Shown one piece after another: positions 11,591 to 34,238 of a stretch of DNA of 64,000 nt. This stretch comes from Myxococcota bacterium. Its GTDB lineage: Bacteria > Myxococcota_A > UBA796 > UBA2385. The stretch spans positions 32,001 to 96,000 of the forward strand of contig JBIJDH010000019.1 in the NCBI GenBank assembly GCA_044344255.1, in the 5' to 3' direction. Every line of letters starts with the position of its first letter. Position 1 is the first letter of the stretch. The notes below the pieces were generated by a model. The model was not told the origin of the DNA, did not search any database, and saw only the letters and a list, made by a program, of their open reading frames with translations. Made by a program: the position numbers and the translations under genes.

Positions 11591-12691
11591 ATGCCCGACG
11601 TCTCCCCCACCCCCTCCGAAAGGACCGAGCCCGAAGAGGCCGCCCGGATCGATCTCTTCGCGCTCGACCTCCCCGGCCTCCGGGCGCTCCTCACGGGGCT
11701 CGGGGAGCCCGCCTTTCGGGCGGCGCAGCTCCACAAGTGGATCCACGAGCGCCACGCCCCCTCCTTCTCGGCGATGACCGACCTCCCGGCCTCCCTCCGC
11801 ACGAAGCTGGAGGCGGGCTTTCGACTCGGCACCCTCGCGATCGCCCACGAGCAGCGGAGCCAGGACGGCACCCAGAAGCGCCTCTATCGCCTCCCCGACG
11901 GGCAGCTCATCGAGTCGGTGCTGATGCCCTATCAGGACGGTCGCCGCACCGCCTGCATCTCGTCCCAGGCCGGCTGCGCGATGGGCTGCACCTTCTGCGC
12001 CACGGGCCAGATGGGCTTCGCCCGCCACCTCACCGCCGCCGAGATCGTCGAGCAGGCCTGGCGCTTCGACCAGGAGCTCAAGGCCAAGGGGGAGCGCCTC
12101 TCCAACGTCGTGCTGATGGGCATGGGCGAGCCCTTTCACAATTTCGAGCCCGTGGTGGAGGCCATTCACCGGCTGAACAAGGAGATCGGGATCGGCGCCC
12201 GCCACATCACGGTGAGCACGGTGGGCCTCGTGCCACAGATCGACCGCTTCGCCGCGCTCGGCCTGCAGGTGAAGCTGGCGATCAGCCTGCACAGCACGCA
12301 GGACGACGAGCGCAGCGAGATGATGCCGGTCAACCGCCGCTGGCCGATCGCCGAGCTCATCGCCGCCTGTCACCGGTACGTCGAGCAGACTGGGCGGCGG
12401 ATCTCCTTCGAGTGGGCCCTCATCGCCGGCAAGAATGACGGCGTGGACGAGGCCGAGCGCCTGGGCCGCCTCCTCCGCGGCCTGTTCTGCCACGTCAACC
12501 TCATCCCCTTGAACCCCACCGGCGGCTACGCGGGCGCCCCCTCGGACCCCGCCACCGCCGCCGCCTTCGTGGCCACCCTCGAGCGCCACGGCGTGCCGGC
12601 CACCGTCCGCGTGCGGCGCGGCATCGACATCGACGCCGGCTGCGGACAGTTGAAGAGTGAGCTCCTCCGCCGGCTACGCGCCTCGGGCTGA
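11591..12691 (+). CDS. rlmN: Dual-specificity 23S rRNA/tRNA m2A methyltransferase RlmN
   Basis: CISSQAGCAMGCTFCATG radical-SAM motif, MGMGEP, VNLIPLN, DIDAGCGQL. Confidence 0.96.
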   Translation: MPDVSPTPSERTEPEEAARIDLFALDLPGLRALLTGLGEPAFRAAQLHKWIHERHAPSFSAMTDLPASLRTKLEAGFRLGTLAIAHEQRSQDGTQKRLYRLPDGQLIESVLMPYQDGRRTACISSQAGCAMGCTFCATGQMGFARHLTAAEIVEQAWRFDQELKAKGERLSNVVLMGMGEPFHNFEPVVEAIHRLNKEIGIGARHITVSTVGLVPQIDRFAALGLQVKLAISLHSTQDDERSEMMPVNRRWPIAELIAACHRYVEQTGRRISFEWALIAGKNDGVDEAERLGRLLRGLFCHVNLIPLNPTGGYAGAPSDPATAAAFVATLERHGVPATVRVRRGIDIDAGCGQLKSELLRRLRASG

Positions 12692-15328
12692 GCGCCGCCG
12701 CCGGGCCAGGAGCGCGCCGAGGCCGACGAGCAGCCAGGGAGCGGCGCCGGTCGTGGGGGCCCCGCTGCAGGCGCAGCCCTTCCCGGCGCCACCGCCGCCA
12801 CCGCCGCCGCCGCCATCGCCCAGGCCGTCGTCGCCGCCCTCGTCCCCGCCGCCGTCCCCCTCGGGGCAGGCAGCGTCGACGCCGTCGCAGTCCTGATCGA
12901 TCTCGTCGCCGCAGACCTCCGCCTCGGGGGCTCCGCGGGCGGGGTCGTGGTCATCGCAGTCCACGTCGCACAGGACGGCGTCCCCGTCGAAGTCCTGGAC
13001 GGGGTAGCAGCCCTCGTGGTCGGGATCGAGCTGATAGTCCCAGATGCCGCGGCCGTAGGTCCCGAAGCGGATCGAGTTCTCGGCGGTGAGCGCCTCGACG
13101 CTCCAATACGTGGTGACCGGGGCGCCAGCGCCGATGTCGGTCCACTCGCTGGCGCCCGGCTCCCGCATCCAGGCCCCCGTCTCGGTGGCGGCGAAGAGGC
13201 GCCCCGATCCGTCGGGCGCGAGCGCGAGGCCATAGACGAAGGTGCGCGGCAGGCCGTCATCCCAGGCCTCCCAGGTGAGCCCATCGTCGGTAGACCGCCA
13301 GACCGAGGGGTTACCGTAGCCGGAGCCCGCCAGATAGACGAGCTGCTCCTCCTGGCGCGAGGGGAGGATCGTGCTGCCGTAGAGGTAGTGGTCGGTCGTG
13401 CTCTCGTCGGCCACCATCGTCCAGGTGACGGCGTGGTCGGTCGAGCGGAAGACCCGCCCGTAGCTGGTCGCCGCCCAGGCGATGTCCGGGTTGAAGGTCG
13501 AGAAGGCGAGGGCCGAGGCGTATTCGTAACCTTCCGATGAGAAGTCCTGCTCGCTGTAGAGCTCCCCCTTCCACTCCGAGCCGCGCGCCTCGGTGTACCG
13601 ATAGATCTGCGACGCCAGGAAGAAGAAGGCCGCCGGATCGACCGGATCGGCCACCACCGGCGGGATCCAGGCCATCTGCGACTCGCCGCTCGGAAAGTCG
13701 CCCCAGCCGAGCTGGGGGTCGTCTTCGTCGAACTGGACGAGGATGTAGCCGGGATAGGTCGAGTACACATAGGCGTGGGAGCCGTCGGCCGAGCTCAGGT
13801 GCCCATAATCCCCGCTGGTGGCCTGATAGAAGCGGAGGAGGTCGCCCTCGGGGACCATGCCGGTGCTGAGCTGGTAGCCCTGGTCCTGGGCCCCGGCGGC
13901 GACGTGGGTGGGGTCGACCGAGGAGGTGAGGGTCGAATAATACTGGCTCACCCGAAGGCCGCTGAGCGACAGGTTCTCCACCGTGTCGAGGCGGTCCCGT
14001 GACCGATAGAGCCCGCCGTCGGTGCCGATCCACCACAGCTCCGAGCCGTCTTCGGCCTCGTCCACCGTGAGGCCCATCATGTCGGCGTGGAGCTGATCTC
14101 CGGGGCTGTCGTAGTAGCTCCACCAGTCATTCTGCTTGTGGAAGGAGGCGCCGCCGTCCATCGTGACGTGCAGCTCCATCCCGCCGTAAGCGAAGAGGTC
14201 GGGGTCCTGGCGAGAGGCAGCGAGGGGGGCCCAGAAGTCCTCGTAGGGGCCGAGCTCCACCCAGGTCTCGCCGGCGTCGTCGCTGCGGCGGACGAGGCTG
14301 CCGCCGTCGCCGTCGCCGAGCACCCAGAGGCGGGGCGCCCCGGCCTCGGAGCCACAGAGCGAGCCCGAGCTCATCCCGGCATCGACGAGGCCCACCCGGC
14401 TGAAGGTGTCGCCGTCATCATCACTCTGGAGGAGCTCCCCGTCGTCGAGGAGGTAGAGGCGGCGGTCGCCGTCGCGGGGGATCCAGAGGTCGCCCTGGAA
14501 TTCATCGAGGGCGCGGAGGAGGGAGAAGGTCTGCCCGCCGTCCAGCGACCGATAGAGGTCGTAGGTCCAGTAGTTGGTCACCATGGCGAAGACGAGCGCG
14601 TCCTGGCCGGCCGGGGCGGTGAGGCGCTTGATCTGCCAGAGGTCAGAGGGCAGGCCGGCGGCGCGGCTCCAGGTGCCGCCTTCGTCGGCGCTGCGGTAGA
14701 TCGCCGAGCCGCTCGCCATGACGAGGATGTCGGGATCGGTCGCCGCAGGGGCCGGGAGGGCGAGGAGCTGCTGGGCGCCCCCGTAGACGTCGTCGGCGAG
14801 GGGGGTCCAGCCGTCGCCGTCTGGGCTGGCGGTCCAGAGGCCGCCGTGCGCCGAGCCCGCGTAGATCGCCTGCTTGTCGCTCGAGAGCCGCGCTTCGTGC
14901 ATGCGCCCGGCGAGGTTCTCGCTGCCGCGCTCCACCCAGCGCGGGCCGGCGGCGGGGGGCGGCGCCGCCCGTCGCCGCGCCAGGGCCGCCTCGGCGTTGC
15001 CGCGCTCGACCCCCTTCCAGCTCACCCCCGCAGGGGCGCGGTGCAGCTCCTCGAACCAGCGCCGCCGGGCCGCACCGGCGCTGCGCTCCCGGTCTTCTCG
15101 CTCCTCGGTCGACAGGCCGGGCTCGTCCTTATCGGCGCCGGCCGGGATCGGCGGCCGCCAGGGCCCCTTGGCCGGCAGCCCGGGCCAGAGGGCCGCCGCG
15201 AGCGCCGCCGCGACGAGCAGCCCCAAGAGGCCGCCCGCGGCGCCCCCTCCGCCGACCTGGCCCGCCCCGCCGGACTCGCTCCCCTTCACGCCGCGCGACA
15301 TCCAACCTCCCCGGGGCGCCAAGCCCAT
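12674..15328 (-). CDS. Surface BNR/Asp-box beta-propeller protein (glycoside hydrolase/VPS10-like) with MopE-like motif and MYXO-CTERM-like tail
   Basis: Repeated SxDxGxTW Asp-boxes, LHADM, GTDGGLY, GTYGRGIW; DCDDHDP...DQDCDG; C-terminal GCAC...LLVGLGALLARRRR. Confidence 0.8.
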   Translation of the reverse strand: MGLAPRGGWMSRGVKGSESGGAGQVGGGGAAGGLLGLLVAAALAAALWPGLPAKGPWRPPIPAGADKDEPGLSTEEREDRERSAGAARRRWFEELHRAPAGVSWKGVERGNAEAALARRRAAPPPAAGPRWVERGSENLAGRMHEARLSSDKQAIYAGSAHGGLWTASPDGDGWTPLADDVYGGAQQLLALPAPAATDPDILVMASGSAIYRSADEGGTWSRAAGLPSDLWQIKRLTAPAGQDALVFAMVTNYWTYDLYRSLDGGQTFSLLRALDEFQGDLWIPRDGDRRLYLLDDGELLQSDDDGDTFSRVGLVDAGMSSGSLCGSEAGAPRLWVLGDGDGGSLVRRSDDAGETWVELGPYEDFWAPLAASRQDPDLFAYGGMELHVTMDGGASFHKQNDWWSYYDSPGDQLHADMMGLTVDEAEDGSELWWIGTDGGLYRSRDRLDTVENLSLSGLRVSQYYSTLTSSVDPTHVAAGAQDQGYQLSTGMVPEGDLLRFYQATSGDYGHLSSADGSHAYVYSTYPGYILVQFDEDDPQLGWGDFPSGESQMAWIPPVVADPVDPAAFFFLASQIYRYTEARGSEWKGELYSEQDFSSEGYEYASALAFSTFNPDIAWAATSYGRVFRSTDHAVTWTMVADESTTDHYLYGSTILPSRQEEQLVYLAGSGYGNPSVWRSTDDGLTWEAWDDGLPRTFVYGLALAPDGSGRLFAATETGAWMREPGASEWTDIGAGAPVTTYWSVEALTAENSIRFGTYGRGIWDYQLDPDHEGCYPVQDFDGDAVLCDVDCDDHDPARGAPEAEVCGDEIDQDCDGVDAACPEGDGGGDEGGDDGLGDGGGGGGGGGAGKGCACSGAPTTGAAPWLLVGLGALLARRRRSARGA

Positions 15329-15450
15329 CCCCCCAGTGTATCGAGGCCGCGACCGAGGGGCGGTGAGGCGCTGGTGAACCGCCGCCGCCCCAGGGGCGTA
15401 CCCTCCGGACCCCTCCGTTTCGGGACCAGACGCGCGGGCGCCTCCCGACT

Positions 15451-20456: not shown

Positions 20457-21341
20457 ATGTCGAGCTCCGCGCTGCCCTCCACCCCTCCCGAGCTGTCCCC
20501 GCCCGCGCACCCGCGGGTGGACGATCACTTCATTCAGGAGGGCGCGCGTGTCGAGGTTCTACGAGGGATCTTGCTGATGGCGCCGCCTGCCCAGGAGCCC
20601 CACGCCACCGCCCACCTCTCGCTGGCCTACCTGCTCGGCGCCTATGTGGCCTCGGGCTGGAAGGCCGCCGTAGACATGCTCACCCGGACGAGCGAGGCCT
20701 CGAACTTCGCGCCCGACGCGAGCGTCTACCCCGAGGCCCGGGACCCGGTCACGAAGGGGCGCCAGCTCGAGGAGCTCGCCTTCGAGATCGCAGACTCCCA
20801 GCCCCTCGACTCCGCGGGCGAGAAGGCCCGTGAGCTCACCCGCCGCGGCGTTCGGCGGGTCTTCTGCGTCGTGGTCAAGCACAGCCGGGTGCTCGAGTGG
20901 TCGGTCGACACCGACGGCTGGAGCCCCCTGCCCGCGAACGCGCGCATCGAAGACCGCTGCTTCGTCCGACCGCTCCCCGCCCGCGCCTTGGTGCACGCCT
21001 CCGACTGCGACGAGGCCGTGGTGGCCGCGCTCCGCGCCCGCCGCACCCCCGCGCTGGTCGCGCTCCAGGCCGAGGCGCACGCCGAGGGCCGAGTGGAGGG
21101 CCGAGTGGAGGGCCGAGTGGAGGGCCGAGTGGAGGGCCGAGTGGAGGGCCGAGCCGACGGCCTCGCCAAGGCGCTCCACACGGTGCTCCAGGCCCGCGGC
21201 CTCCGGCCCAGCCCCGCCGAGGCCACCCGCATCGACACGGCCGACGCGGCCACCTTGGAGGGTTGGCTCGTGGCCGCCCTCTCCGCCTCGGCGGTGGCCT
21301 CCCTGTGGGGGGCTGGGCCCGAGCGCGGCGGCGACGCCTGA
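20457..21341 (+). CDS. Uma2 family (PD-(D/E)XK) endonuclease with EGRV repeats and helical C-terminal domain
   Basis: VEVLRG, FAPDASVY, LAFEI, GVRRVF; (EGRV)5 then a C-terminal LQARG...LEGWL segment. Confidence 0.8.
   Translation: MSSSALPSTPPELSPPAHPRVDDHFIQEGARVEVLRGILLMAPPAQEPHATAHLSLAYLLGAYVASGWKAAVDMLTRTSEASNFAPDASVYPEARDPVTKGRQLEELAFEIADSQPLDSAGEKARELTRRGVRRVFCVVVKHSRVLEWSVDTDGWSPLPANARIEDRCFVRPLPARALVHASDCDEAVVAALRARRTPALVALQAEAHAEGRVEGRVEGRVEGRVEGRVEGRADGLAKALHTVLQARGLRPSPAEATRIDTADAATLEGWLVAALSASAVASLWGAGPERGGDA
21084..21152 (+). repeat. 12-bp coding tandem repeat GAGGGCCGAGTG (5 full copies plus 9 bp)
   Basis: Read directly from the sequence; encodes EGRV repeats. Confidence 0.95.
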
Positions 21342-22127: not shown

Positions 22128-24143
22128 ATGGTCCGCCCCTCGTCCTTGTCCTCGTCCTCGTCCTCGTCCTCGTCCTTGTCCTCGACCTCGCTGTCCGCTC
22201 GCCGCTCGCCCCGATCGGCCACTCCGCACGCCCGGCTCCTCGCGGCGCTCCTGAGCTTCGGAGCCCTCGGAGCCGGCGGTTGTAACGACTACAACCTCGC
22301 CGGAGAGAAAGAGGCCCCCGGCCGCGGCGAAGGAGACACCGGCACCCCCGGCGAGGACTGGACCGAGCAGGACGTGCCCCCCGACTGCAAGGCCACCCAG
22401 TTCCCCGCAGAGGAGGTGGGCGTCGGCGACTCCTGCCCCACGCCCCCCGAGGGCACCTTCAACCCGATCGTCGAGTGGGACTACGGCGACGGCTGGGGCT
22501 GCCTCTCGCAGCCGATCGTCGCCGACATGGACGCCGACGGCAAGCCCGAGGTCGTGGTCAACATCCTCAAGAGCTTCTTCAACCCCCCGGGCGTGCTCAC
22601 GGTGCTCCACGGCGACGGCTCCGGCCTCATCTGGGAGGACACCGGCGCCATCATGGCCTACGGCTCGCCCCCCGCCGTGGCAGACCTCGACGACGACGGC
22701 TACCCCGAGATCGTCATCGTGCGCGAGTACGCGAGCGCCCTCTTCGGCGCCGGCGACTACACCGCCGCCGCCTACGACAACGAGGGCAACGAGCTCTGGG
22801 AGTCCGAGCACTTCATCGACCGCGAATTCGACTGGGCCAGCGCGCCGGTCATCCGCGACATGAACCACGACGGTGACCCCGAGATCGTGATCGGCCGCGT
22901 GATCTTCAACCACGACGGCACAGTGCGCGGCGTCGGCCAGTACGGCCGCGGCTCCTATGGGCTCTATGAGCTCGGAGACTTCGTCGTCGGTGAGTCGGCC
23001 GTCCCCGCCGTGACCGACCTCAACCTCGACGGCGAGGACGAGGTGGTGGTCGGCAACGCCATCTACGACATCGACGGCAACGCCACCTGGTTCGATGACG
23101 CCGAAGATGACGGCATGATCAGCATCGCCAACCTCGACGCCGACCCCGAGGGCGAGTTCGTCGCCATCACCGGCAACACGATCCGCGCGGTTGACACCGA
23201 CGGCACCATCCTCTGGGGCCCCACCGTGGTGGACGGCGCCAACATCCTCGCCACTGCGGGCATCGCCGACCTCGACCTCGACGGCCTGCCCGAGCTCGTC
23301 ACCGCCGGCGGGAATCGGCTCGTCGTGTTCAACCACGACGGCACGGTGCTGTGGTCCACCCACGTCACCGACACCTCCGGGGCCACCGGGGCCTCCTTCT
23401 TCGACTTCGAGGGGGACGGCGTGCCGGAGGTGGTCTACATCGACGAGGTCGAGATGGCCGTCTATGACGGCCCCACCGGCGCGCTCAAGTTCTTCAACGA
23501 CGAGCACGCCTCGAACACCATGTTCGACTACCCCACCGTGGCCGACGTCGACGCCGACGACCACGCCGAGATCATCGTCTGCCACAACAGCTTCTCGAGC
23601 GCGCTCAGCGTCTACGGCGACGTCAACGACTCCTGGATGCCGGCCCGAAAGGTCTGGAACCAGCACGCCTACGACATCACCAACATCAACGACGACCTCA
23701 GCGTCCCGCTTGACCCCACCCCCGGCTTCGCCGACACCAACACCTGGCACTCCGCCATCGCCACCACCGGTGAGTCGCTGGTCAACGACGTCAGCGCCGA
23801 GATCCTGGAGATCTGCGAGGACGACTGCGACCAGGGCTACGTCTGGGTGACCGCGCGGGCGCTCAACTACGCCGCCGAGGACCTCGAGGCTGGCCTACAC
23901 GTCGCCCTCTACGGGCGCTCCGGCGGGGTCGACAGCTACCTCGCCGACACCGTGCTCGAGGCGCCGATCCGGTCCGGCTGGAGCTCGGAGGGCCTCGTGT
24001 TCCACGTGGAAGCAGACCTCCTCGACGGCGCAGACTCCCTCTGGTTCGCCGCCGATGACGACGGGACGGGCACCGGCGCCCTCCTCGAGTGTGCGGAGAC
24101 CAACAACGGCTTCCAGTGGAACGGCCCCTTCTGCGCAGGATGA
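22128..24143 (+). CDS. FG-GAP/VCBS repeat beta-propeller lipoprotein (paralog A)
   Basis: Ser-rich N-terminus, lipobox AGGC, multiple ADLDxDGxPE repeats, FDFEGDG, WNQHAY. Confidence 0.85.
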   Translation: MVRPSSLSSSSSSSSSLSSTSLSARRSPRSATPHARLLAALLSFGALGAGGCNDYNLAGEKEAPGRGEGDTGTPGEDWTEQDVPPDCKATQFPAEEVGVGDSCPTPPEGTFNPIVEWDYGDGWGCLSQPIVADMDADGKPEVVVNILKSFFNPPGVLTVLHGDGSGLIWEDTGAIMAYGSPPAVADLDDDGYPEIVIVREYASALFGAGDYTAAAYDNEGNELWESEHFIDREFDWASAPVIRDMNHDGDPEIVIGRVIFNHDGTVRGVGQYGRGSYGLYELGDFVVGESAVPAVTDLNLDGEDEVVVGNAIYDIDGNATWFDDAEDDGMISIANLDADPEGEFVAITGNTIRAVDTDGTILWGPTVVDGANILATAGIADLDLDGLPELVTAGGNRLVVFNHDGTVLWSTHVTDTSGATGASFFDFEGDGVPEVVYIDEVEMAVYDGPTGALKFFNDEHASNTMFDYPTVADVDADDHAEIIVCHNSFSSALSVYGDVNDSWMPARKVWNQHAYDITNINDDLSVPLDPTPGFADTNTWHSAIATTGESLVNDVSAEILEICEDDCDQGYVWVTARALNYAAEDLEAGLHVALYGRSGGVDSYLADTVLEAPIRSGWSSEGLVFHVEADLLDGADSLWFAADDDGTGTGALLECAETNNGFQWNGPFCAG

Positions 24144-24245: not shown

Positions 24246-26885
24246 ATGGCCCAGCCTGAACCGCCCGCCCTGGACGCGCTCGTCGATCAGGCCGACCAGC
24301 GGGCGCCCTTCGCGGCGGAGGAGCCTCCCTCGGAGGCCATGGCCGAGGCGCCGCGCACCGACGGCCCCCTCGAGGTGGAGGAGCCTCCCAAGCCGGTCGT
24401 GGCGGAGGCGCCGCGCACCGATGGCCCCCTCGAGGCGGCCGGCCACCCGAGCCTGCGGGCGGCCGATCGCATCGAGCCCGGCGCCCTGCGCTGGTTCCGC
24501 GGACGCCGCGCCCGCACCATGGAGGCCATCGGCGAGCCCTGGGGCGACGCCAGCAACCGCATCCATTGGGACGACGCCGACGTCACCGTCTTCTCGATCG
24601 TCTTCTCGACGATGGAGGAGCTCGGAGAGCCGCACACGAGCGCCGACGCAGGGGGCCCCGAGCCGAGCCCGGGCGACGAGGAGCGGCCGCTCTGGGCCAC
24701 CCAGACGATGGAGGACGCGGCCCGCACCAGCGACTGGTCCCGCGCCCGCGTGCCCCTGCCCCCCGACGCCAACCCGAACGACTGGCCGGAGCGCCGCCTC
24801 GAAGGCGCGGGGGATCCCACGGAGCTCGCCGCCGCGCGCCTCCGCGCGGGCCCCGGGGAAGACGCCGCTGGCGGGAGCAGCGCCGAGGGGGCCGGTGAGC
24901 CGGGGTCCGCGGCGGCCGCCCGCGTCCGGCGCCCCGTCGAGGCGGCCGAGCTCGAGGGGGCCAGCGCGCTCGAGGGGGCTGGGGAGCCCGCGACCGCCGC
25001 CGCCGCGCGCCTCCGGGGGCCCGAGGGCTCCGCCGCCGAAGACGCCACCGCGAGCGCGCTCGAGGGCCTCGTGGAGGCCGCCGGAGGCCGCCGCTACGCC
25101 CCCGCCGAGGCCACCGCCAACGACGCCCGCGCCGCGTCCAGCCCCACCGCCGAGGGCGCGGGGCACCCGGTCCTCGCGGGGCGCCTCCGCTACCAGCCCG
25201 TCCAGCCGCGCACGCAGCCGGAGGGCGCCAGCGGCCTCGAAGAGCTCGGTGAGCCCGTCCCCCTCGCGGCCGCCCGCGTCACGCCGGCGGTGGACGACGA
25301 AGAGGCACCGTCCGTCGGCACCCTCGAGGGGGCGCTCTTCACCGCCCAGATGTGGCAGGGGGCCGTCCCCGCCCCGCCCGCCCGTCACCCGAACGACTGG
25401 ACCGCCCGACACCTCGAGGGGGCCGGCGAGCCCCAGGTCGAGGCCGAGGCTCGCCTCCCGCTCGGCGCCGGGCCCTCCGCCTCCGGCGGCGCCACCCTCG
25501 AGGCCGCTGCCTCCCCCTCCGCCCACGCCGATGAGCGCTTCGTCTTCACGGGCGGCGGCCCCACGACCTCCGCCCCGACCCTCGAGGGCGCCGCCCGCAC
25601 CTCCACCGACGCCACCGGCCGAATGGGGGGCCCGCCGCCCCGACCGCCCGTGCCGACCGGCCTCGAGGGCGCCCTAACGGTGCCGGTGCTCGGGCGTGCC
25701 GAGCGCGGTCCGCGTCCCCCGCCGCCTCCCCCCGAGGCCCCGGTCGGCGAGGGCTACACCGTCGCCCCCCTCGACACCCTGGTCATCTCCTCCGCGCCCG
25801 GCGAGGGGCAGGTCTGCGGCCAGTGCGGCGGGCCCCTGCGGGTCCAGCGGATCGAGCGGGAGCGCCGCTTCGACTTCGCCTGGCAGAGCTTCCAGCGCGA
25901 GGAGCTTCACCGCCAATGGCTGGACTGCCCGGCCTGCCCCGTCGAGCCGCCCCAGCGCGCCCTCTCACCGGCCGTGGCCAGCCGCCGCCTGCCGCTCTCC
26001 AACGGCCTGCTCGCCCAGGTCCTGGTCGCCCGCTTCGGCGAGCACAGCCCGCTCGTCCAGGTCCAGCGGACCCTCTCCGAGCTCGGCCTCGAGCTCTCGC
26101 TCCGCCAGCTCGCCGAGGAGTGCGCGCGGGTGGGCCGCCTCGCCGCGCCGCTGGTCAGCCACATGGCCGCAGCGGGGCCCGCGGTCCAGGTGGACGCCGA
26201 GGGCGTGCGGGCCGTCGAGATCATCGGCCGCAGCCAGCGCCGGGGCGCCCTCTACGGGCGGCGGACCCCGGAGGGCGTCCTCTTCACCTGGGTTCCGGAC
26301 GGCGAGGCCCCCCCCGCCGCCCAGGGGTCCCGCGGCGCCGCCTCTCTCGCCGGCACCCTCTACGCCGCGGTGCTCGGCCGCAGCGCCGCCGGCTTCGCGA
26401 GCCGGGCCCGCCAGCGCTTCTTCGAGGCCCTCCCGCGCTCCCCCGGCGGCGCAGGCACGGCCCTCCACCACCTGCACGCCGTAGAGGGGGTGGCCCGCGT
26501 CGACGAGGCGGCCCGCGCGCGCGCCGAGGCGCGGCTCCTGAGCTGGCTCGAGGCGGAGCGGCAGCGCTTCGGCTCGACCCCCGACACCCGCCTCCAGCGC
26601 GCCGTGGCCACCACCCTCGATCAGTGGCCCCGCATGGCCCCGCTCGTCGAGCCCCGAGACAGCGCCGCCCTCGGCCCTCTCCTCAAGGGGGGGCCCCGCG
26701 AGTGGCTCTTCGACGCCGCCGAGGGGGGGGTGGTCAACGCCGCCCTCTGGCACAGCCTCATCGAGAGCTGTCGCCTGCTCGGGATCCGGCCCTGGGCCTA
26801 CCTCACCGACCTCCTCTCCGCCCTGGCCGCCAGCCCCGACCTCCCCGTCGCTCCGTGGACCCCCGCCGCCTGGTCCGCTCGATAA
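24246..26885 (+). CDS. Repeat-array protein fused to a degenerate IS66-family TnpC transposase scaffold
   Basis: CGQCGG...CPAC zinc finger, GLLAQVLVARFGEHSPL, RARQRFFEA, REWLF...SLIESCRLLGIRPWAYLTDLL match IS66 TnpC blocks in order; N-terminal ~490 aa are periodic repeats. Confidence 0.8.
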   Translation: MAQPEPPALDALVDQADQRAPFAAEEPPSEAMAEAPRTDGPLEVEEPPKPVVAEAPRTDGPLEAAGHPSLRAADRIEPGALRWFRGRRARTMEAIGEPWGDASNRIHWDDADVTVFSIVFSTMEELGEPHTSADAGGPEPSPGDEERPLWATQTMEDAARTSDWSRARVPLPPDANPNDWPERRLEGAGDPTELAAARLRAGPGEDAAGGSSAEGAGEPGSAAAARVRRPVEAAELEGASALEGAGEPATAAAARLRGPEGSAAEDATASALEGLVEAAGGRRYAPAEATANDARAASSPTAEGAGHPVLAGRLRYQPVQPRTQPEGASGLEELGEPVPLAAARVTPAVDDEEAPSVGTLEGALFTAQMWQGAVPAPPARHPNDWTARHLEGAGEPQVEAEARLPLGAGPSASGGATLEAAASPSAHADERFVFTGGGPTTSAPTLEGAARTSTDATGRMGGPPPRPPVPTGLEGALTVPVLGRAERGPRPPPPPPEAPVGEGYTVAPLDTLVISSAPGEGQVCGQCGGPLRVQRIERERRFDFAWQSFQREELHRQWLDCPACPVEPPQRALSPAVASRRLPLSNGLLAQVLVARFGEHSPLVQVQRTLSELGLELSLRQLAEECARVGRLAAPLVSHMAAAGPAVQVDAEGVRAVEIIGRSQRRGALYGRRTPEGVLFTWVPDGEAPPAAQGSRGAASLAGTLYAAVLGRSAAGFASRARQRFFEALPRSPGGAGTALHHLHAVEGVARVDEAARARAEARLLSWLEAERQRFGSTPDTRLQRAVATTLDQWPRMAPLVEPRDSAALGPLLKGGPREWLFDAAEGGVVNAALWHSLIESCRLLGIRPWAYLTDLLSALAASPDLPVAPWTPAAWSAR
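24429..25706 (+). repeat. 15 degenerate protein-level repeats, period 27-32 aa
   Basis: Consensus about [LM]EGAGEPxxxAxAR[LVI], from residue 62 to about residue 487 of the ORF. Confidence 0.8.
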
Positions 26886-26912
26886 GCTCCCCTCCACCCC
26901 GACGGACCGACC

Positions 26913-28295
26913 ATGTTGTTCATGCTGATCTCCGCGGCCCTGGCCGCCCCCGCGGTGGACGAGCTCAGCGCCCTCACCCAGGCGGCCGGGCCCGTGGTCG
27001 GCGCCGTGAGCTGCGCCCCGCTCGACGCCGTGCTCGACGGTCTGCGGGGCAGCGCCATCTTGAAGGGGGTCCTCGCCCGCCCCGAGCTCCAAGAGGCCGG
27101 CAGCGCGCTCTTCCGCGACCTGCTCGACCCCACCCGCACCCAGGGCTTGGGCCTCGATCTGCAAGGCTCCTTCAGCGTCGTCGAGGCCGGGGGCGTCGAG
27201 ACCACCCGCGTCTCCTTCTCGGGCACGCCCGCCCAAGCCGAGGCCTTGTTGCCCGACGCCAAGGGCAGCCCCTGGACCGCCGCAGGCCCCGCCGCCTGGA
27301 CCCACACGGCCGACGAGAGCCGCTGGACAGAGGCCCACCTCGAGGCCAGCAAGCTGGTGATGGCGCGGCGCTCCAAGCGAGGCGGCGAGGCGGCCCTGCC
27401 CTTCTCTCCCGCGGTGCTCGCCAACCTCCCCCACGAGGCCGGCTGCGCCGCGTACCTCGGACAGTTCCCCAAGACACAGAAGGGCCCCGACCTCCAGGCC
27501 CTCGGGCTCTGGATCCCGATGAACAGTGCCACACCGGCGATCATCCAGCTCCGCACCGCCTCCGCGCCGCCCGCCGCGCTCCGGAGCCCGCCCCGGCCCC
27601 CCGTCGGGGGCACGAGCCGCGCGCACCCGCTGATGGTGGCCACCTTCGGCACCTCCATCACCGACCTCCTCCAGGACCCCGCCGTGATCCGCGGCCTCCA
27701 CCTCGAAGGCAAGCTCCCCGAGGCCAAGGACGACCGGCTCCGCCTCGAGGGCGGCACCACGCTGGCCCTCTTCGCCGGCGGCGGCCGGCCCCGCTTCGTG
27801 TTCGTCCAGCCGCTGAACGACGCACGGGGCCGCCCCATCCCCAGCCGAAAGCTCAAGCGGCTGGCCCGCCGGGTCCTCAGCGATTTCGACGGCGAGCTCA
27901 CGAGTGACACCACCTTCCGCTTCAAGTGGCGGAGTTCGCTCATCTTCGGCGCCTTCAGCGACGGGCGCGTCGTCGCTGGCACCGACGAGGCCGCCGTCGA
28001 GGAGGCCGCCCAGGGCATCGGCGAGCCCTGGCTCAGCGACGATCAGAGCCTCTGGGCCCAAGGCCACCCCCTCTCGGCCCAGGCGAGGCTCGAGGCCCCC
28101 TTCCTCTCCGAGGCGATCAACGTGCGCCTGGGGCTGTCGGCCCAGGACACCGTCTGGCGCACCGAGCTCCAGGTCTCGGGCCTGCCCGACCTCGACCAGC
28201 TGCCCCCCGGCCTCCTCGACGCGCTCCGGATGGGCCTCGAGAGCAGCCTCCAGAAGCAGCTCGCCCCCGCGGCGGGGCCGACCTCCCCGCAATAG
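26913..28295 (+). CDS. Hypothetical secreted protein
   Basis: 460 aa, short signal peptide MLFMLISAALAAP, GC-rich third codon positions; no family recognised. Confidence 0.7.
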   Translation: MLFMLISAALAAPAVDELSALTQAAGPVVGAVSCAPLDAVLDGLRGSAILKGVLARPELQEAGSALFRDLLDPTRTQGLGLDLQGSFSVVEAGGVETTRVSFSGTPAQAEALLPDAKGSPWTAAGPAAWTHTADESRWTEAHLEASKLVMARRSKRGGEAALPFSPAVLANLPHEAGCAAYLGQFPKTQKGPDLQALGLWIPMNSATPAIIQLRTASAPPAALRSPPRPPVGGTSRAHPLMVATFGTSITDLLQDPAVIRGLHLEGKLPEAKDDRLRLEGGTTLALFAGGGRPRFVFVQPLNDARGRPIPSRKLKRLARRVLSDFDGELTSDTTFRFKWRSSLIFGAFSDGRVVAGTDEAAVEEAAQGIGEPWLSDDQSLWAQGHPLSAQARLEAPFLSEAINVRLGLSAQDTVWRTELQVSGLPDLDQLPPGLLDALRMGLESSLQKQLAPAAGPTSPQ

Positions 28296-28387
28296 CGGCC
28301 GCGGCCACATTTTTCCCGTCCGGCCCGCTTTCGGCGGCGAAGCTCGGCGGGGCTGTGGCAAGATGGGATCGTCGCCCCCGGAGTCCT

Positions 28388-30337
28388 ATGCGTCGCCTCT
28401 CGCACCTGCTCTTGCTCTGCCCGCTCAGCGTCGCCTGCTCCGAGTACGACATCCTGGGGGAGAAGGAAGACAATCCGCCCCAACGGAATGACACGGGTGT
28501 GCCCGAAGAGGAAGACTCCGAGGTCGTGATCGTCGAGACGGCCGAGCCCTTGCCCGAGTGCCAGGGCCGCATCTTTGACGAGCACAGCGTGCCGATGATC
28601 GAGGCCTGCGCCGAGTCCTCCGAGCCCGTCGGCACCTTCACGCCGACGGTGGAGTGGGAGAAGGCCACCTGGACCGTCCAGCCCGGGAGCTCTCAGGTGA
28701 TGATGATGCCCGCGGTGGGCTCCTTCAACGACGACGACGGCGACGGTGACGCCGATGAAGACGACATCCCCGACGTCGTGGTGGTCACCTACGGGAGCTC
28801 TGACGTCATCCGGGTGGTGAGCGGAGACGGGTCGGGCACCGAGATCCTCAACATCGCCGGGACCGGCGTCCAAGGCCAGGGCGGCGTCGCCCTCGGCGAC
28901 ATCGACGGCGACGGCTGGCAAGACATCGTCATCCCCACCACCAGCCGCACGATCGCGGTCTACGACCACCTCGGCAACCGGATGTGGGTGAGCGCCAGCC
29001 TCGGCGGCGCCCTCTACGGTACGTCCGACAACCCGGCGATCGCCGACATGGACGGGGACGGAAGCCCGGAGATCATCTGCGGCGCTGCCATCCTCTCGAG
29101 CACGGGCGCCGTGCTCGGCAAGGGCACGGCGGGGATCGGCGGCGTGAACGGAGCCAACGTGGGCACCGCGTCCTTCGCCTACGACATCGACGACGACGGC
29201 GTACAAGAGGTGGTGGTCGGCAACGCCCTCTACGACATCACGGGCGCCACCATCTGGAACAACGGCCTCGTAGACGGCTACCCCGCGGTGGGCAACTTCG
29301 ACTCCGACACCATGGGCGAGATCGTGGTCACGAGCGGCGGGAAGATCCGCCTGCAAGACGACAACGGCACCAAGCTCTGTGAGACCGCGATCCCCGGCGC
29401 CGGCTCCGCCTACTACGGAGGCCCCCCCACCGTCGCCGACTTCGACGGTGACGGCGAGGCCGAGTTCGCCGCCGCCGCGGGCAGCCGCTACTCGGTCTTC
29501 GAGAAGGACTGCTCCGTCAAGTGGCAGGCCACGACGCAAGACGCGAGCAGCGGCAACACGGGCTCCTCTGTCTTCGACTTTGAGGGAGACGGCGTCGCCG
29601 AGGCCGTCTACGCCGACGAGACGAAGCTGTGGGTCTTCGCCGGGCCGGACGGCGCGGTCAAGCTCTCCGACCCCCACCACAGCAACGCCACCTGGCTCGA
29701 GTACCCGGCCATCGCCGACGTAGACGGCGACAACCAGGCCGAGATCATCGTCGCCAACACCGCCTACATGATGTCCTACTCGGGCTTCACCGTCTTCGGA
29801 GACGCCAGCAGCTCCTGGCGGCCCGGGCGAAAGATCTGGAACCAGCACGCCTACTCGATCACCAACGTCAACGATGACGGCAGCATCCCCGCCGTCGCCG
29901 ACCGCAACCTCGAGTACTACAACAACTTCCGCTCCGGCGCCCTCAACGTTGGCTCAGACCTCCCCGCACGGCCCGATCTCTACGTCACCATCGAGGACGT
30001 CTGCATTGACGAATGCGTCCTCGACCGCCTGCTCGTCTGGGTGTCGGTCACCAACCAGGGCTACACGGACATCACCGAGGACGTCCCGCTCACGCTGACG
30101 GGCACGCAGCAAGATGGCACCGCGGTCGAGCTCTACAGCACGATCATCACCGATGTCATCCCCGCCGGTCAGGCCCTGCAGGCCTACGAGATCCTGGTCG
30201 AGAGCGGCGCCTCGGCGATCGTCAGCCTGTCGGCCTCGATCGACGGCGGAAACAGCGGCGTCGGCGCGATCCTCGAGGAGTGCGACGAGCTCAACAACGA
30301 CAGCGTCTGGGCGGGAGAGGCCTGCCTCGCGCCCTGA
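28388..30337 (+). CDS. FG-GAP/VCBS repeat beta-propeller lipoprotein (paralog B)
   Basis: MRRLSHLLLLCPLSVAC lipobox; shares GTFxPxVEW, EVVVGNA, FDFEGDG, WNQHAY and ECxExNN with 22128..24143. Confidence 0.85.
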   Translation: MRRLSHLLLLCPLSVACSEYDILGEKEDNPPQRNDTGVPEEEDSEVVIVETAEPLPECQGRIFDEHSVPMIEACAESSEPVGTFTPTVEWEKATWTVQPGSSQVMMMPAVGSFNDDDGDGDADEDDIPDVVVVTYGSSDVIRVVSGDGSGTEILNIAGTGVQGQGGVALGDIDGDGWQDIVIPTTSRTIAVYDHLGNRMWVSASLGGALYGTSDNPAIADMDGDGSPEIICGAAILSSTGAVLGKGTAGIGGVNGANVGTASFAYDIDDDGVQEVVVGNALYDITGATIWNNGLVDGYPAVGNFDSDTMGEIVVTSGGKIRLQDDNGTKLCETAIPGAGSAYYGGPPTVADFDGDGEAEFAAAAGSRYSVFEKDCSVKWQATTQDASSGNTGSSVFDFEGDGVAEAVYADETKLWVFAGPDGAVKLSDPHHSNATWLEYPAIADVDGDNQAEIIVANTAYMMSYSGFTVFGDASSSWRPGRKIWNQHAYSITNVNDDGSIPAVADRNLEYYNNFRSGALNVGSDLPARPDLYVTIEDVCIDECVLDRLLVWVSVTNQGYTDITEDVPLTLTGTQQDGTAVELYSTIITDVIPAGQALQAYEILVESGASAIVSLSASIDGGNSGVGAILEECDELNNDSVWAGEACLAP

Positions 30338-31128: not shown

Positions 31129-32568
31129 TTACTGGAAGGTGTAGCGGAGCGAGAGCAGCCCCGTGGACTGTACGCTCCGCCCCTCACAGAGGCGGTTGTC
31201 GTCTCCGGTGCTGCAGTCCACCTGATCGGCGAGGGACATGTCGCGGGTCCAGACCACCTTCTCGGTCACGGTGAAGCGGCCGTTGAGCTTGATCTCCAGG
31301 TCGACCGTGTCGCGGGTGATGGAGTCTTGATCGAGGGAGTCGGCGAGCGAGACCCCGTCCGGGAACAGCACGGGGAGGAGCTCGAGCGTGTTCATCAGGC
31401 TCCACCGCTTCGCCTCGTAGCCCGCCTTCAACCGAAGAGAGCCTCGGATGAGGGCGCTCTGGCAGGCAGTGTCGATCCCCACCGTCAATCCATCACAGTC
31501 TCCGCCCGCAGGGGTGGTGATCGCGCGGTAGTTCCAGACAGGCGCAAACGAGAGGTCGAGGCGGGCGGGGTGGAGGACGTCGAGGACATCGACCTTCAGG
31601 CCCACCGGCGCTACCACCGCGTCGAGGTCGAGGTTGGCCACCGGGTTTCGTTCAGCCTCCGCGAAGAAGAAGGGCGTGAGCCGCGGCCAGAGGTAGTTGT
31701 AGTCGAGCGAGAAGCGGCCCCGGAGCTCGCTGTTCGTGTCTTCCCCCGCCGCGCGCCCGCGGGTGTAACTGGCGCTCAACTTCACCTCGACGGGGTCACG
31801 GCCGTAGAGCGCCGGGATGGGCTCCCGGACAAAGCTGAAGCCCACGGTCCCGTCGTGGAGATCGACGTCTGAATTCGTGGACAGACCGCCATCGAGCGAG
31901 ACGGTGATGGGGACCTTCGGATCCATGCGGTCGGCGACGGTGCGCTCGGTGATGATCCCGCGGCCGTCTCGCTTCTCGACGAGCACCACGCCGCCGAAGC
32001 GGTCGTAAGTCCAGGTGGTGGTCCGGCGACCGGCGGCGTCCTCCACCGCCTGCTCCACCCGGCGGCCGGCCCCGTCGTAGCGGTTGACCTCCCGGCGCTC
32101 CAGCGCCTCGTCGCGGGTGACGAGCTGCTCGGCCAGCGCACCCTGGGCGCTGTAGGCGCGGGTCTCCAGGATGACGTGCCCATCGACCACCGCGCGCTGC
32201 TCGACGAGGCGGCCCTTGGCGTCGTACCGGAATGTGGTCTCCTCGATCAGCCGCCCTTGGGAGAGGGTCAGGCGACGCACGAGGTGCCCGGCGGGGTCCC
32301 AGGTCTCGCGGAGCTCGGCGGCCACCGGCGTCACCACCGCGGGGGCCGCCACAACCGCCACAGCCGCCACGGGAGACACCGGCGCCGCCGGAGGCGCTGA
32401 CCAAGGCCCGCTCGGGGGCGAGGGAGTGGCCGGCGGGAGCGGCGCCGGGGTCGAGGCCGGCGCAGGCGAGGCGCGGAGGCCCCAGGGATCGCCCTCGTCG
32501 GCGCGGGCCGCCGATGCGCCGAGGAGGAGCAGCACCGCCGCGCGAATCGGAGAGGGGCGGAGGGTCAT
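31129..32568 (-). CDS. Secreted protein with YD-like repeats and a C-terminal putative outer-membrane beta-barrel (DUF481-like)
   Basis: Signal peptide; WDPAGH, YDAKGR, YSAQG, YDGAGR, YDRFG repeats; amphipathic strands ending LSLRYTFQ. Confidence 0.6.
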   Translation of the reverse strand: MTLRPSPIRAAVLLLLGASAARADEGDPWGLRASPAPASTPAPLPPATPSPPSGPWSAPPAAPVSPVAAVAVVAAPAVVTPVAAELRETWDPAGHLVRRLTLSQGRLIEETTFRYDAKGRLVEQRAVVDGHVILETRAYSAQGALAEQLVTRDEALERREVNRYDGAGRRVEQAVEDAAGRRTTTWTYDRFGGVVLVEKRDGRGIITERTVADRMDPKVPITVSLDGGLSTNSDVDLHDGTVGFSFVREPIPALYGRDPVEVKLSASYTRGRAAGEDTNSELRGRFSLDYNYLWPRLTPFFFAEAERNPVANLDLDAVVAPVGLKVDVLDVLHPARLDLSFAPVWNYRAITTPAGGDCDGLTVGIDTACQSALIRGSLRLKAGYEAKRWSLMNTLELLPVLFPDGVSLADSLDQDSITRDTVDLEIKLNGRFTVTEKVVWTRDMSLADQVDCSTGDDNRLCEGRSVQSTGLLSLRYTFQ

Positions 32569-34238
32569 GGCAGGGCTCCAGCGGGGGGCATCGTCGCGGC
32601 TCGCCAGGCGGCGAGGCGTTCAGGGTCATCATTATGGGCGAAGTAGAAGCCTTCGAGGTGGGCCCAAAGCTGGGCCCGCTCCGCCGCGCTCCGGTTCGGG
32701 AGGGTGGGCAGGGTCTGGTCCATCCAGGCCGGCAGGTCCTCCACGACGGCGCCTCGACCGCGCAAGACCTCGACCAGGGGCTGATGATAGCGGACCAACG
32801 TGGCCGTCACACCCTCCCCGAAGTCCACGCGGCTGCCAGGCGGGTGGGGCATCTCCATGCGGAAGTCGAAGGCGAGGTCGATGCCCCGCTCGCGGAGGTA
32901 GGCCGGGCCCGCCTTCCGACCGTGGCCGGTGCGCGCACCGTCGGGCGTAGGGAGGCGGGCCACGAGGGCGTCGGTGAGCCCGACGTGGGGCTCGAGCGCG
33001 TAGGGGACCCGCGAATAGTAAGCGAGCATCGCCTGGGTCCCGAAGTATACCGCCTTGACCGGGGTGCCCTCCAACATCGGCGCGAGGACGCCCCCTTGCC
33101 GCCGCGCCTCCTCCACCTGCGCCGCCGGATACCAGGAGCGCTCCTCCACGATCCCGTCCACACCTCGATCATCGAGGAGCCGCCGATCAAATGGCGCGAA
33201 GGCGAGCGCGGCGAGGAGCAGGGCGCCGAGCCCGAGCCGCAGCCGGGCGCTGGACAGGAGCGCGAGGCCCTCCTCGACCGCGAGCAGGAGCGCTGGCGCC
33301 ACCGGCAGCAGGAAGCGGGCGAACATGAAGTCGCCGCCGACCCGCGCCACATAGAGCACCCAGCCGAAGGAGACGAGGCCGTAGCCGAGCACCCCCCAGC
33401 CCACACGGGGCAAGAACATCCGGCGCGTCACCAGCGGCACGGCGAAGAAGCCCAGGAGGAGGGGGGCATACATTCGAGTGAAGCCCCAGAGGTACAGCGC
33501 GCCCTGCCCCCAACGCGCGCCCTCCCCGGCCTTGGCCGTGAAGGTGTTGGGGATCACGGTCCCATAAAAATATACCTTCCAGGCCAACCATGGCGTGAGC
33601 AGCATCACCGGCGCCACCAGCACCCCGCGCAGCCCCGGCGCGCCGCCGCCCAGCCAGGCGAAGAAGACCGCGCCGCCGAGCACGAGGGCGCCGTCGGGGC
33701 GACACAGGGTGCACAGCGCCCCGAGGAGGCCCACCCGGAGCCACTCATCGAGGGCCCGCACCTCCGCCACCGCCGTGAGGGTGGCGGTCACGAGGAGGAT
33801 GAACAGGCTCGTCTCGAGGCCGCCGGTCGCGAAGATGCGCGCATGCAGCATCGCCCCGAAGCCCAGCGCGGCGAAGCCCCCGAGGCCCGCCGGCAGCCTG
33901 GCCCGCGCGGCGATGCGGTCACCGGTGCGGGCGAGGAGGGCCAGCGTCAGGGCGTAAGCGAGGAGCCCGAGCGCCACGCTCGACCGCTCCGGCCCGACCC
34001 CCAAGGCCATGCCGAGGGCGAGCAGGAGGGTCCACAAGAAGTTCGTGTAGCCCTCTACCCGCTCCCCCGAATTGAAGACCAGCCCGTCGCCCTGGACGAG
34101 GTGCTCGGCATACCGAAAGCTGATGAAGGCGTCATCGGACAGCCAGCGACAGCGGAGCGCCGCGTGGGCGACCGCCGCTGCCAACAGGGCGAGGCGCAGC
34201 AGGCGGACGAGGCCGCCGGAGATCATTCGGGACCGCAC
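32565..34238 (-). CDS. GT-C fold membrane glycosyltransferase (AftB-like)
   Basis: DDAFISFRYA...GLVFNSGERVEGYTNFLW, GLETSL, RPDG, PNTFTAK, GGDFMFARFLLP. Confidence 0.8.
   Translation of the reverse strand: MRSRMISGGLVRLLRLALLAAAVAHAALRCRWLSDDAFISFRYAEHLVQGDGLVFNSGERVEGYTNFLWTLLLALGMALGVGPERSSVALGLLAYALTLALLARTGDRIAARARLPAGLGGFAALGFGAMLHARIFATGGLETSLFILLVTATLTAVAEVRALDEWLRVGLLGALCTLCRPDGALVLGGAVFFAWLGGGAPGLRGVLVAPVMLLTPWLAWKVYFYGTVIPNTFTAKAGEGARWGQGALYLWGFTRMYAPLLLGFFAVPLVTRRMFLPRVGWGVLGYGLVSFGWVLYVARVGGDFMFARFLLPVAPALLLAVEEGLALLSSARLRLGLGALLLAALAFAPFDRRLLDDRGVDGIVEERSWYPAAQVEEARRQGGVLAPMLEGTPVKAVYFGTQAMLAYYSRVPYALEPHVGLTDALVARLPTPDGARTGHGRKAGPAYLRERGIDLAFDFRMEMPHPPGSRVDFGEGVTATLVRYHQPLVEVLRGRGAVVEDLPAWMDQTLPTLPNRSAAERAQLWAHLEGFYFAHNDDPERLAAWRAATMPPAGALP

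Follow-up and report, generated by a model that had tools for sequence, protein, structure and literature searches.

To our knowledge, well-documented cases in which a bacterial transposase became a host gene are few: the RAYTs, the nuclease-dead TnpB derivatives, and the ancestors of Cas1 and Cas12. Here we analyzed a gene that is very probably a domesticated host gene derived from TnpC, the transposase of the insertion sequence (IS) family IS66. It lies at positions 24246..26885 (+) of a 64,000-nucleotide stretch of contig JBIJDH010000019.1 from a Myxococcota bacterium (assembly GCA_044344255.1), which we call the window. The gene is an unbroken open reading frame (ORF) with an ATG start and 879 codons plus stop, and it encodes an N-terminal motif arm followed by a C-terminal TnpC-derived domain (the last ~385 residues). 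A preliminary description, made from the letters of the window, had proposed a retained host gene that sets the TnpC scaffold behind a new N-terminal repeat domain, not a decaying IS. As candidate roles it had put forward a regulator, a dominant-negative inhibitor of IS66 transposition, or a nucleoid or defence factor. Copy number, synteny, selection and profile comparisons, presented below, bear out the proposal of a retained host gene.

In literature searches that did not extend to subscription journals, no paper on this family came up. The closest described systems each resemble this gene in part. RAYTs, or TnpA(REP), are domesticated IS200-like tyrosine transposases that are single-copy, vertically inherited and housekeeping-like; their IS200 catalytic centre is intact, and their supposed role is to spread the REP/REPIN repeats that flank them (available part of PMC5581495, in which IS66 does not occur). 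Measured by the features discussed in that part of the article, our gene is like the RAYTs in its copy number, its lack of duplicates and its vertical transmission. Unlike them, it encodes a derivative of a DDE-type transposase without a complete active site, and its flanks lack repeats: no REP-like repeats were found there, and the 14-mer counts have a median of 1 and a maximum of 17. TldR proteins are nuclease-dead, TnpB-like repressors that derive from transposons (available part of 10.1101/2023.11.30.569447). As in that account, a transposon nuclease may have been kept here for nucleic-acid targeting after catalysis was lost, with binding suggested in our case by the sequence. The fold is unrelated, however: TldRs have the RuvC/TnpB fold of IS200/IS605, are RNA-guided and are not known to carry a motif arm. 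Nothing resembling a guide RNA was seen at our locus, although no search was aimed at one.

Outside these cases, CENP-B and other eukaryotic proteins derive from DDE (pogo-type) transposases. In the reading proposed here, our protein would parallel CENP-B as a chromosomal protein in which a putative DNA-binding module of transposase origin is joined to a degenerate DDE core and an extended acidic region, but it comes from a different transposase superfamily and a different domain of life, and its DNA binding is a prediction. The Tn5 inhibitor is an N-terminally truncated, dominant-negative transposase that is encoded inside its element and is identical in sequence to the transposase. Our protein is likewise an apparently non-catalytic transposase form that could interfere with an active enzyme, but its gene lies outside any IS and the protein is only 25% identical to the TnpC of a resident IS66 element. 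As for IS66 itself, peptides of TnpC bind the beta-clamp near the leucine-zipper (LZ) region (available part of PMC3971601). A beta-clamp link was considered for the present protein and set aside, as the LZ region is absent.

Homology of the C-terminal domain and its catalytic residues

By profile comparison, the C-terminal domain is homologous to TnpC far above chance. When a profile of 17 family members was aligned to 14 canonical TnpCs with hhalign, the match had a probability of 100% and an E value of 1.3e-49; its 381 columns begin at the zinc ribbon and run to the end of the protein. When residues 500-879 were used as the query of an exhaustive search, 961 proteins were returned at E <=0.001. 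Ranked first were ~30 long proteins matched at their C-terminus, followed by 500-560-aa TnpCs at E 1e-20 to 1e-10. A word-indexed protein search with the same domain returned only the window protein's own cluster. Matches of the single protein to curated profiles were more partial. DDE_Tnp_IS66 (PF03050) matched at E 1.6e-7 and 31.5 bits (cut-off 23.1) over only positions 4-63 of 284, DDE_Tnp_IS66_C (PF13817) at 30.5 bits (cut-off 30), and zf-IS66 weakly (E 0.08). The NCBIfam equivalog transpos_IS66 (NF033517) scored 74.8 bits, under its cut-off of 180, and LZ_Tnp_IS66 (PF13007), present in a canonical relative, had no match in the 879-aa protein. The IS66 profile matches that the preliminary description had named as a check were thus found, and the blocks that it had named (CGQC, CPAC, GLLAQVLVARFGEHSPL, QVDAE, GFASRARQRFFEA, REWLF, SLIESCRLLGIRPWAYL and PWTPAAWSAR) were all located where it had placed them.

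PF03050 was matched by 17 of 17 family members; in the present protein the match covers a helical block, the best-conserved stretch in common with canonical TnpC, which is presumed to bind DNA. The C-terminal element was matched by PF13817 in 9 of the 17; in the family alignment it contains one invariant Trp and nearly invariant Trp, Cys and Gly, and the W and P of the tail behind it are invariant. The protein shares with IS66 TnpC the GxGLLA helical block, the first catalytic Asp, the C-terminal element and the TPxxW tail. In contrast to TnpC, it lacks the LZ domain, the second catalytic Asp, the CWAH block and the NNxxE block, has ~8 residues deleted, and carries a motif arm of ~490 aa; its gene has no tnpA, tnpB or terminal inverted repeats (TIRs), is single-copy and is vertically inherited.

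A canonical counterpart in the same genome makes the difference plain. Contig C35 (locus L044 1-3834) holds a classical IS66 element with tnpA (81-440), tnpB (434-826; PF05717, 89.9 bits) and tnpC (823-2520). Its 565-aa TnpC scores 253 bits over profile positions 3-283, 281 positions in all, against 31.5 bits over 60 of 284 for the window protein; it has intact D, D, CWSH and NNxxE, and it finds the window protein by BLASTP at E 0.007. TnpB_IS66 matches occur in this genome only on C35. There is no tnpA or tnpB near our gene, and among the 25 longest inverted-repeat pairs (of 57 in total) not one encloses it. The preliminary description had likewise reported neither partner genes nor TIRs nearby, and the combination of an intact DDE triad, TIRs and multiple copies, which it had named as the mark of an active IS, was not seen. 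Behind the canonical tnpC of C35, a second, partial tnpB-tnpA pair lies head-to-head on the minus strand (2414-3066), an arrangement that looks like two elements abutting or nested. Short canonical TnpC fragments (the C-terminal 60 aa or a partial DDE domain), at C21:61677-61964, C22:10401-10589 and C10:5744-6269, are decayed IS66 copies.

With hmmalign, 29 members of the family were placed on the canonical profile together with 42 canonical TnpCs. The column of the second catalytic Asp (D2) contains Asp in 42 of 42 canonical sequences; in the family, where this region is variable and its alignment uncertain, 5 of 29 members have Asp and 8 have Glu, and the present protein has a gap (hmmalign) or Ala (hhalign). 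The Cys of CWAH is found in 42 of 42 canonical sequences and 1 of 29 members, and the His in 41 of 42 and 1 of 29; the residues aligned to this block in the present protein are F-A-S-R, with Phe for the Cys and Arg for the His. The two Asn of NNxxE, each present in 42 of 42 canonical TnpCs, occur in 0 and 1 of the 29 members and read Ser and Ala here. The Glu of that block (42 of 42) is present in 5 of 29 members, all of them in a Pro/Glu-rich filler without Asn, and falls in a gap in the present protein. The full catalytic signature was found in 0 of the 29. We assigned the catalytic Glu from invariance in the 42 canonical sequences, but the conclusion that the signature is lost does not depend on which Glu is catalytic, since D2 and NNxxE are missing as a set. 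Judging from these alignments, it is very likely that the protein does not catalyze transposition. It is a relative of IS66 TnpC that fails the tests for an active transposase, namely the signature, NF033517, the LZ region, tnpA/tnpB/TIRs and copy number.

Distribution, descent and selection

This genome, from a family of uncultured freshwater Myxococcota, contains one full copy of the gene. Of 21 further genomes in that taxonomic family, 18 have a match to the C-terminal domain, with identities of 29-45% and open frames of up to 1759 aa. The family profile scored 398-514 bits in 17 of these, one more (G014) was cut by a contig end, and each had one copy; the three genomes without a match are 78-88% complete. 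In one neighbouring family, 3 of 16 genomes carry proteins of the same architecture (235-259 bits). Canonical TnpCs in the order reach at most 191 bits, are 500-560 aa long and are sometimes multi-copy (11 matches in one genome); near-full-length ones occur in 10 of the 22 genomes of the family, in 1 to at least 9 copies. Across 401 genomes sampled from the phylum, matches above ~195 bits occurred only in the same family (5 of 7), and these counts are a floor because the sample was searched with a stricter first look. A profile search with a 5-sequence sub-alignment returned 9 related loci, and with the single protein as query it returned none. Metagenome runs that contain DNA of the gene number 20, all of freshwater, lake or river origin, and belong to 17 studies. 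In their source annotations, family members are called 'hypothetical protein' or 'transposase'.

In an IQ-TREE tree of 71 sequences, a single branch (SH-aLRT 100) separates the 29 members from the 42 canonical TnpCs, and the label family or canonical changes once, compared with 22.5 times on average after shuffling. Pairs from one genus cluster together, and the window protein pairs with the G003 ortholog (support 98). As a caveat to vertical inheritance, the members from the neighbouring family nest inside those of the window genome's family (support 89). Synteny with housekeeping genes holds within sub-clades. In one of them, spanning three genera, orthologs have in common an ABC-F ATPase, a thiamine pyrophosphate (TPP)-dependent enzyme and a lamin-tail-domain protein as neighbours, and another clade shares an extracytoplasmic function (ECF) sigma factor and others. 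Single-copy syntenic orthologs, which the preliminary description had named as a check on domestication, were thus present, with one copy in 18 of 21 genomes and synteny at the level of sub-clades.

The ABC-F ATPase, read from its translation, has a C-terminal coiled coil (Uup-like) and is encoded within 1-2 genes of the ortholog in the three genera (L017, L020, L023, L025 and L027). E. coli uup mutants show raised transposon excision. The adjacency is probably plain synteny.

Judged from the sequences compared, selection on the gene is purifying. In the closest ortholog pair (G007/G021, from the same genus) the non-synonymous rate dN of the C-terminal domain is 0.019 and the synonymous rate dS is 0.181, which gives a dN/dS of 0.106, and the arm has a dN/dS of 0.33. 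A variant of the gene from a river metagenome differs at 26 positions without indels. Of these differences 22 are at codon position 3, and 19 are synonymous versus 7 non-synonymous, three of the seven being Glu to Asp. One contig, of depth 6.6, accounts for 24 of the 26, and another, of depth 2.6, for the other two. The frame is intact in all complete orthologs, and the sole internal stop that was flagged is an ortholog's own terminal stop. Neither frameshifted orthologs nor a dN/dS near 1 in the closest pair, the signs of a neutral remnant according to the preliminary description, were found.

The motif arm, predicted structure and gene layout

The N-terminal arm (aa 1-489) is acidic and disordered, with an isoelectric point (pI) of 4.5, a net charge of -37 and 54% Ala/Pro/Gly/Glu; the C-terminal domain has a pI of 8.9. 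In a public Atlas model of the whole protein the mean pLDDT (predicted local distance difference test) is 0.45, and a protein atlas search with the arm gave no usable match. At the level of sequence, the motifs of the arm can be shown to be selected and specific to the TnpC-derived family. Their general form is [LM]ExxGxP...[DE]R[VILM], and clearer versions occur in orthologs, for instance PSPLEGYGQPSRDAAERV, with variants used by some clades. With a repeat hidden Markov model (HMM) trained on orthologs, the number of copies in a family protein ranges from 0 to 23 and is 9 in the present one. Arrays of different family members are homologous to one another, and an ortholog repeat block matches window positions 24798-25076 (E 4.6e-4). 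The arms of L019 and L022 contain runs of N (translated X), so that their repeat counts are lower bounds. The most conserved copy is the junction motif PTGLEGALTVPVLG, immediately N-terminal of the folded domain.

Searches for the motif outside the family returned little. In five genomes, 21 of 21 motif-arm matches lie inside the TnpC-derived gene, and a search for the arm in other proteins found only one further family member. The strict pattern occurs 90 times in the 2.11 million residues of this genome (0.043 per 1000 aa), 6 of them in this ORF, and no other ORF of the genome has three or more matches. Because only one DNA-level repeat (60 bp x 2.2) is left in the gene, the motifs have been kept by selection rather than produced by recent duplication. 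The repeat array noted in the preliminary description is therefore real, with 12 motifs and a junction copy, but consists of diverged short motifs and not of tandem DNA repeats. Descent of the motif from the canonical L-F-G-x-K-S-E site of TnpC was considered and rejected: the best matches of the repeat HMM overlap that site in 0 of 11 canonical proteins, with scores no higher than those of shuffled sequences.

An AlphaFold2 (AF2) model of residues 490-879, based on the 17-sequence alignment, has a pLDDT of 90.3 and a predicted template-modelling score (pTM) of 0.89. It shows, in order, a long beta-hairpin (the zinc ribbon), three helices, a three-stranded sheet, helices that include a bundle at 223-317 (model numbering), and C-terminal helices. 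The missing fourth and fifth strands, read from the secondary-structure string, would suggest a remodelled RNase-H-like core in which the D2 strand was replaced. The best Foldseek match in the PDB is the DDE transposase of ISCth4 (IS256 family; E 0.016, probability 0.89, TM 0.28), and nothing in the PDB matched at E <=0.001. In a VIA search the ISCth4 chain was the sole match to the whole model (Z 7.0, root-mean-square deviation 6.6, 218 residues), and the matches ranked above it were generic helical bundles that cover model residues 223-317 only. The family profile had 0 matches among the sequences of solved structures. The structural evidence is weak alone, and the case for a putative transposase fold rests on the sequence comparisons above. 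A homodimer prediction for the C-terminal domain gave no answer (score 0.00 in two runs without controls).

The features of the gene are collected in Table 1. The DNA of the window is 73-81% G+C, with long spurious ORFs in every frame. Over the whole gene, the G+C content at third codon positions (GC3) is 0.94, and in none of its eight successive 330-nt blocks does it fall outside 0.92-0.97. Because GC3 is uniformly high and the codon-position signature is found only in this frame, we take it to be the coding frame. The start codon is supported by the recurrence of an LDALV-like peptide at aa 8-17: the loose pattern [LIM][DEN][DEAH][LIV][LVFGA] is found there in 9 of 16 full-length members, 7 of which read [LI][DE]x[LIV][LV]. 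The intact frame over 879 codons, as first described, therefore stands.

Table 1. Features of the TnpC-derived gene, in window positions
Feature	Position	Strand	Basis
Whole gene	24246..26885	+	ORF list, translation, GC3, codon-position-3 bias of variant differences
N-terminal peptide LDALV (aa 9-13)	24270..24284	+	Loose-pattern matches in family proteins
Sole tandem repeat at the level of DNA (60 bp x 2.2, 83% matches)	24306..24438	+	Tandem Repeats Finder
12-motif array, [LMA]ExxG/AxP/T, then 3-8 residues, then [RD][VILMF]	24429..25640	+	Pattern scan
Junction motif PTGLEGALTVPVLG, thirteenth copy	25653..25694	+	Columns >=70% conserved in family alignment
Proline-rich linker PPPPPPEAP	25716..25742	+	Translation
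Four-Cys zinc ribbon, CGQC (25815-25826)...CPAC (25926-25937), zf-IS66 equivalent	25815..25937	+	zf-IS66 (E 0.08); hhalign; AF2 beta-hairpin
Helical block (GNGLLAQ...), PF03050 positions 4-63, presumed DNA-binding	25995..26174	+	Pfam; AF2 helices
GLLAQVLVARFGEHSPL block	26004-26054	+	Translation scan
QVDAE, first catalytic Asp (D650)	26187..26201	+	MAFFT, hhalign, hmmalign
Degenerate catalytic core: two beta-strands, D2 lost, CWAH replaced by FASR in GFASRARQRFFEA (26391-26429)	26244..26429	+	Alignments
HAVEG, Glu of the L-Y-x-V-E block	26475..26489	+	Alignment
Short Pro/Gly-rich segment replacing the canonical DNNxAER block	26640..26696	+	Alignments
REWLF	26697-26711	+	Translation scan
IS66 C-terminal element (W.SLIESC..LGIRPW.YL), holding SLIESCRLLGIRPWAYL (26754-26804)	26754..26831	+	PF13817 (30.5 bits)
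C-terminal tail PWTPAAWSAR	26853..26882	+	Aligned to the canonical L-T-P-x-x-W tail (hhalign)

The upstream neighbour, 102 bp away, is an FG-GAP lipoprotein gene (22128-24143). Downstream, after a gap of 27 bp and on the same strand, lies a gene for a 460-aa secreted protein (26913-28295) with a signal-like N-terminus and no Pfam or PADLOC match, which is not found next to the orthologs in relatives. It is followed by a second FG-GAP lipoprotein gene (~28385-30337), a paralog of the first (34% identity over 656 aa). Both lipoproteins have a lipoprotein-type Cys after the signal peptide, and the duplicated genes bracket the TnpC-derived gene and the gene of the secreted protein (24246-28295). 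PADLOC, with a library of 2023 that does not cover newer systems, assigned the TnpC-derived protein and three neighbours to 0 families.

Further away, a putative endonuclease gene of the Uma2 family (PF05685) lies ~3 kb upstream, at 20457-21341. A similar endonuclease-type gene is found two genes upstream of the orthologs of genus g8 (L023 369-1226 and L027 1914-2945; from reading the L023 translation), and this may be a coincidence, as the window and g8 genes do not co-cluster at E 1e-10. The window also encodes an RHS-repeat protein (31129-32619, -) and a BNR/sortilin-type protein with a MopE-like metal-binding motif (12674-15448, -), both of types that are typical of large Myxococcota secretomes.

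A putative scaffold and its alternatives

The best explanation of the data as a whole is that the protein is a domesticated, non-catalytic IS66 TnpC that serves as a nucleic-acid-binding scaffold with a multivalent arm. We judge the chances for and against this complete picture to be about even. Its most specific element, a nucleic-acid-bound multivalent scaffold, is proposed from sequence features and is tentative; we rate it a little below an even chance. According to this explanation, an ancestor of one Myxococcota family would have captured an IS66 transposase gene, which would then have lost its partners tnpA and tnpB and its inverted repeats, along with the LZ region at the N-terminus and the greater part of the catalytic signature. 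Since then it would have been inherited vertically, as one copy on the chromosome, with selection against change in the protein. The basic C-terminal domain, in which the zinc-ribbon/helical part and the C-terminal element are kept, would bind nucleic acid, DNA or some other, but would neither cut nor join it. The disordered, acidic arm would display its motif copies, 12 here and up to 23 in orthologs, and would either bring a partner in many copies to the site of binding or regulate the basic domain, perhaps electrostatically. We infer DNA binding because the zinc-ribbon/helical block is kept and is the part best conserved with canonical TnpC, and a scaffold role because of the charge split between arm and domain (pI 4.5 versus 8.9) and the multivalency. 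In a more specific version, which we consider unlikely, the protein would be a counterpart of the eukaryotic transposase-derived chromatin proteins: a lineage-specific nucleoid organiser that would bind specific, possibly transposon-derived sites on the chromosome and whose arm would concentrate a partner there, in many copies, as an assembly or a condensate.

Several observations weigh against the scaffold explanation. The first catalytic Asp (D1) is present in 42 of 42 canonical TnpCs, in 22 of the 29 family members and in the present protein. The preliminary description had listed the change from HADET to QVDAE among the altered catalytic blocks; this part does not hold, since QVDAE retains the catalytic Asp, whereas the reading of CWAH as FASR, the missing DNNxAER and the incomplete signature (29 of 29 members) do. 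Similarly, the Glu of the L-Y-x-V-E block, invariant in canonical TnpCs (42 of 42) and found in 8 of 29 members, is kept here. Because D1 is retained in 22 of 29 members and this Glu in the present protein, some residual metal-dependent chemistry could persist. The canonical set was picked by the pattern [DH]NNx[ASIV]E, so the NNxxE columns, though not the others, are invariant by construction. The four Cys of the zinc ribbon, part of the block presumed to bind nucleic acid, are kept in only 4 of 29 members. Four more distant ortholog pairs are saturated (dN/dS 0.23-0.68 by the Nei-Gojobori method, without correction for strong codon bias), which leaves one unsaturated pair, and the tree came from a quick search only, with the truncated ortholog L033 left out. 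When the window neighbours were compared with the loci of 19 relatives, there was no shared synteny, and the single match was an unrelated distant gene. No RNA runs with the gene were listed, and two metatranscriptome runs of one study were nearly empty of its words. In an AF2 model of aa 440-879 the junction motif had a pLDDT below 60 and was not seen to dock on the domain in cis, a result that neither supports nor disproves such docking.

The protein could instead be a sequence-specific transcription regulator, in which the dead domain would read promoter sites, perhaps derived from IS66 ends, and the acidic arm would modulate transcription. This differs from the scaffold explanation in its output only, gene regulation versus scaffolding, and it too is favoured by the fact that the zinc-ribbon/helical block of TnpC has been kept. 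At two loci of one sub-clade the next gene downstream, which has the same orientation, encodes an ECF sigma factor, and nuclease-dead TnpB derivatives that act as repressors offer a precedent (available part of 10.1101/2023.11.30.569447). However, no neighbouring target gene is conserved across the family, 12-23 motif copies would be unusual for a regulator, and the flanks lack repeated sequence (14-mer median 1). We regard this role as rather doubtful.

An inhibitor of IS66 transposition, whether encoded by the host or by an element, is improbable. Such a protein, in the manner of the Tn5 inhibitor, would occupy IS66 ends in competition with the active enzyme or poison the complexes that the enzyme forms. 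A potential target is at hand, as this genome has the canonical tnpA-tnpB-tnpC element on another contig and 10 of 19 gene-bearing genomes also have a near-full-length canonical TnpC, and the putative end-binding part is the best-conserved part of the protein. On the other hand, the low identity to the resident TnpC and the missing LZ region argue against interference with it, and 9 of the 19 gene-bearing genomes have no near-full canonical TnpC. The long stem branch and family-wide vertical inheritance would be hard to maintain by selection against one IS family, and the motif arm would be left unexplained. The inhibitor reading is thus weakened, yet we keep it because IS copies are poorly assembled in metagenome-assembled genomes (MAGs), and the 9 genomes are MAGs that are 68-90% complete.

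That the protein is still an enzyme, with a remodelled site built on D1 and other residues for, e.g., nicking or structure-specific cleavage, is more doubtful again. Besides the Glu kept in the present protein, this idea would account for D1 being nearly invariant in the 17-sequence alignment. But D2 and NNxxE are missing as a set in all members, the AF2 model predicts only three strands of the RNase-H-like sheet with the D2 strand replaced, and D1 is itself lost in the three neighbouring-family members, in P0019, which clusters with them, and in L021, L026 and P0011. A decaying IS66 remnant that is still open by chance, which would explain the loss of catalytic residues, partner genes and TIRs, is scarcely credible, because it is contradicted by the intact frames here and in all complete orthologs, the purifying selection, the single copies in 18 of 21 other family genomes, the confidently predicted fold and the conserved fused arm.

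If the scaffold explanation is true, the gene would represent the domestication of a DDE-type transposase in which catalysis was lost and a new multivalent arm was gained. As a natural experiment, the family can show what in TnpC is worth retaining once transposition has ceased, namely the zinc-ribbon/helical block, the first Asp and the C-terminal element. These proteins also make up a family that lacks annotation, and genome annotation may miscount its members as mobile elements.

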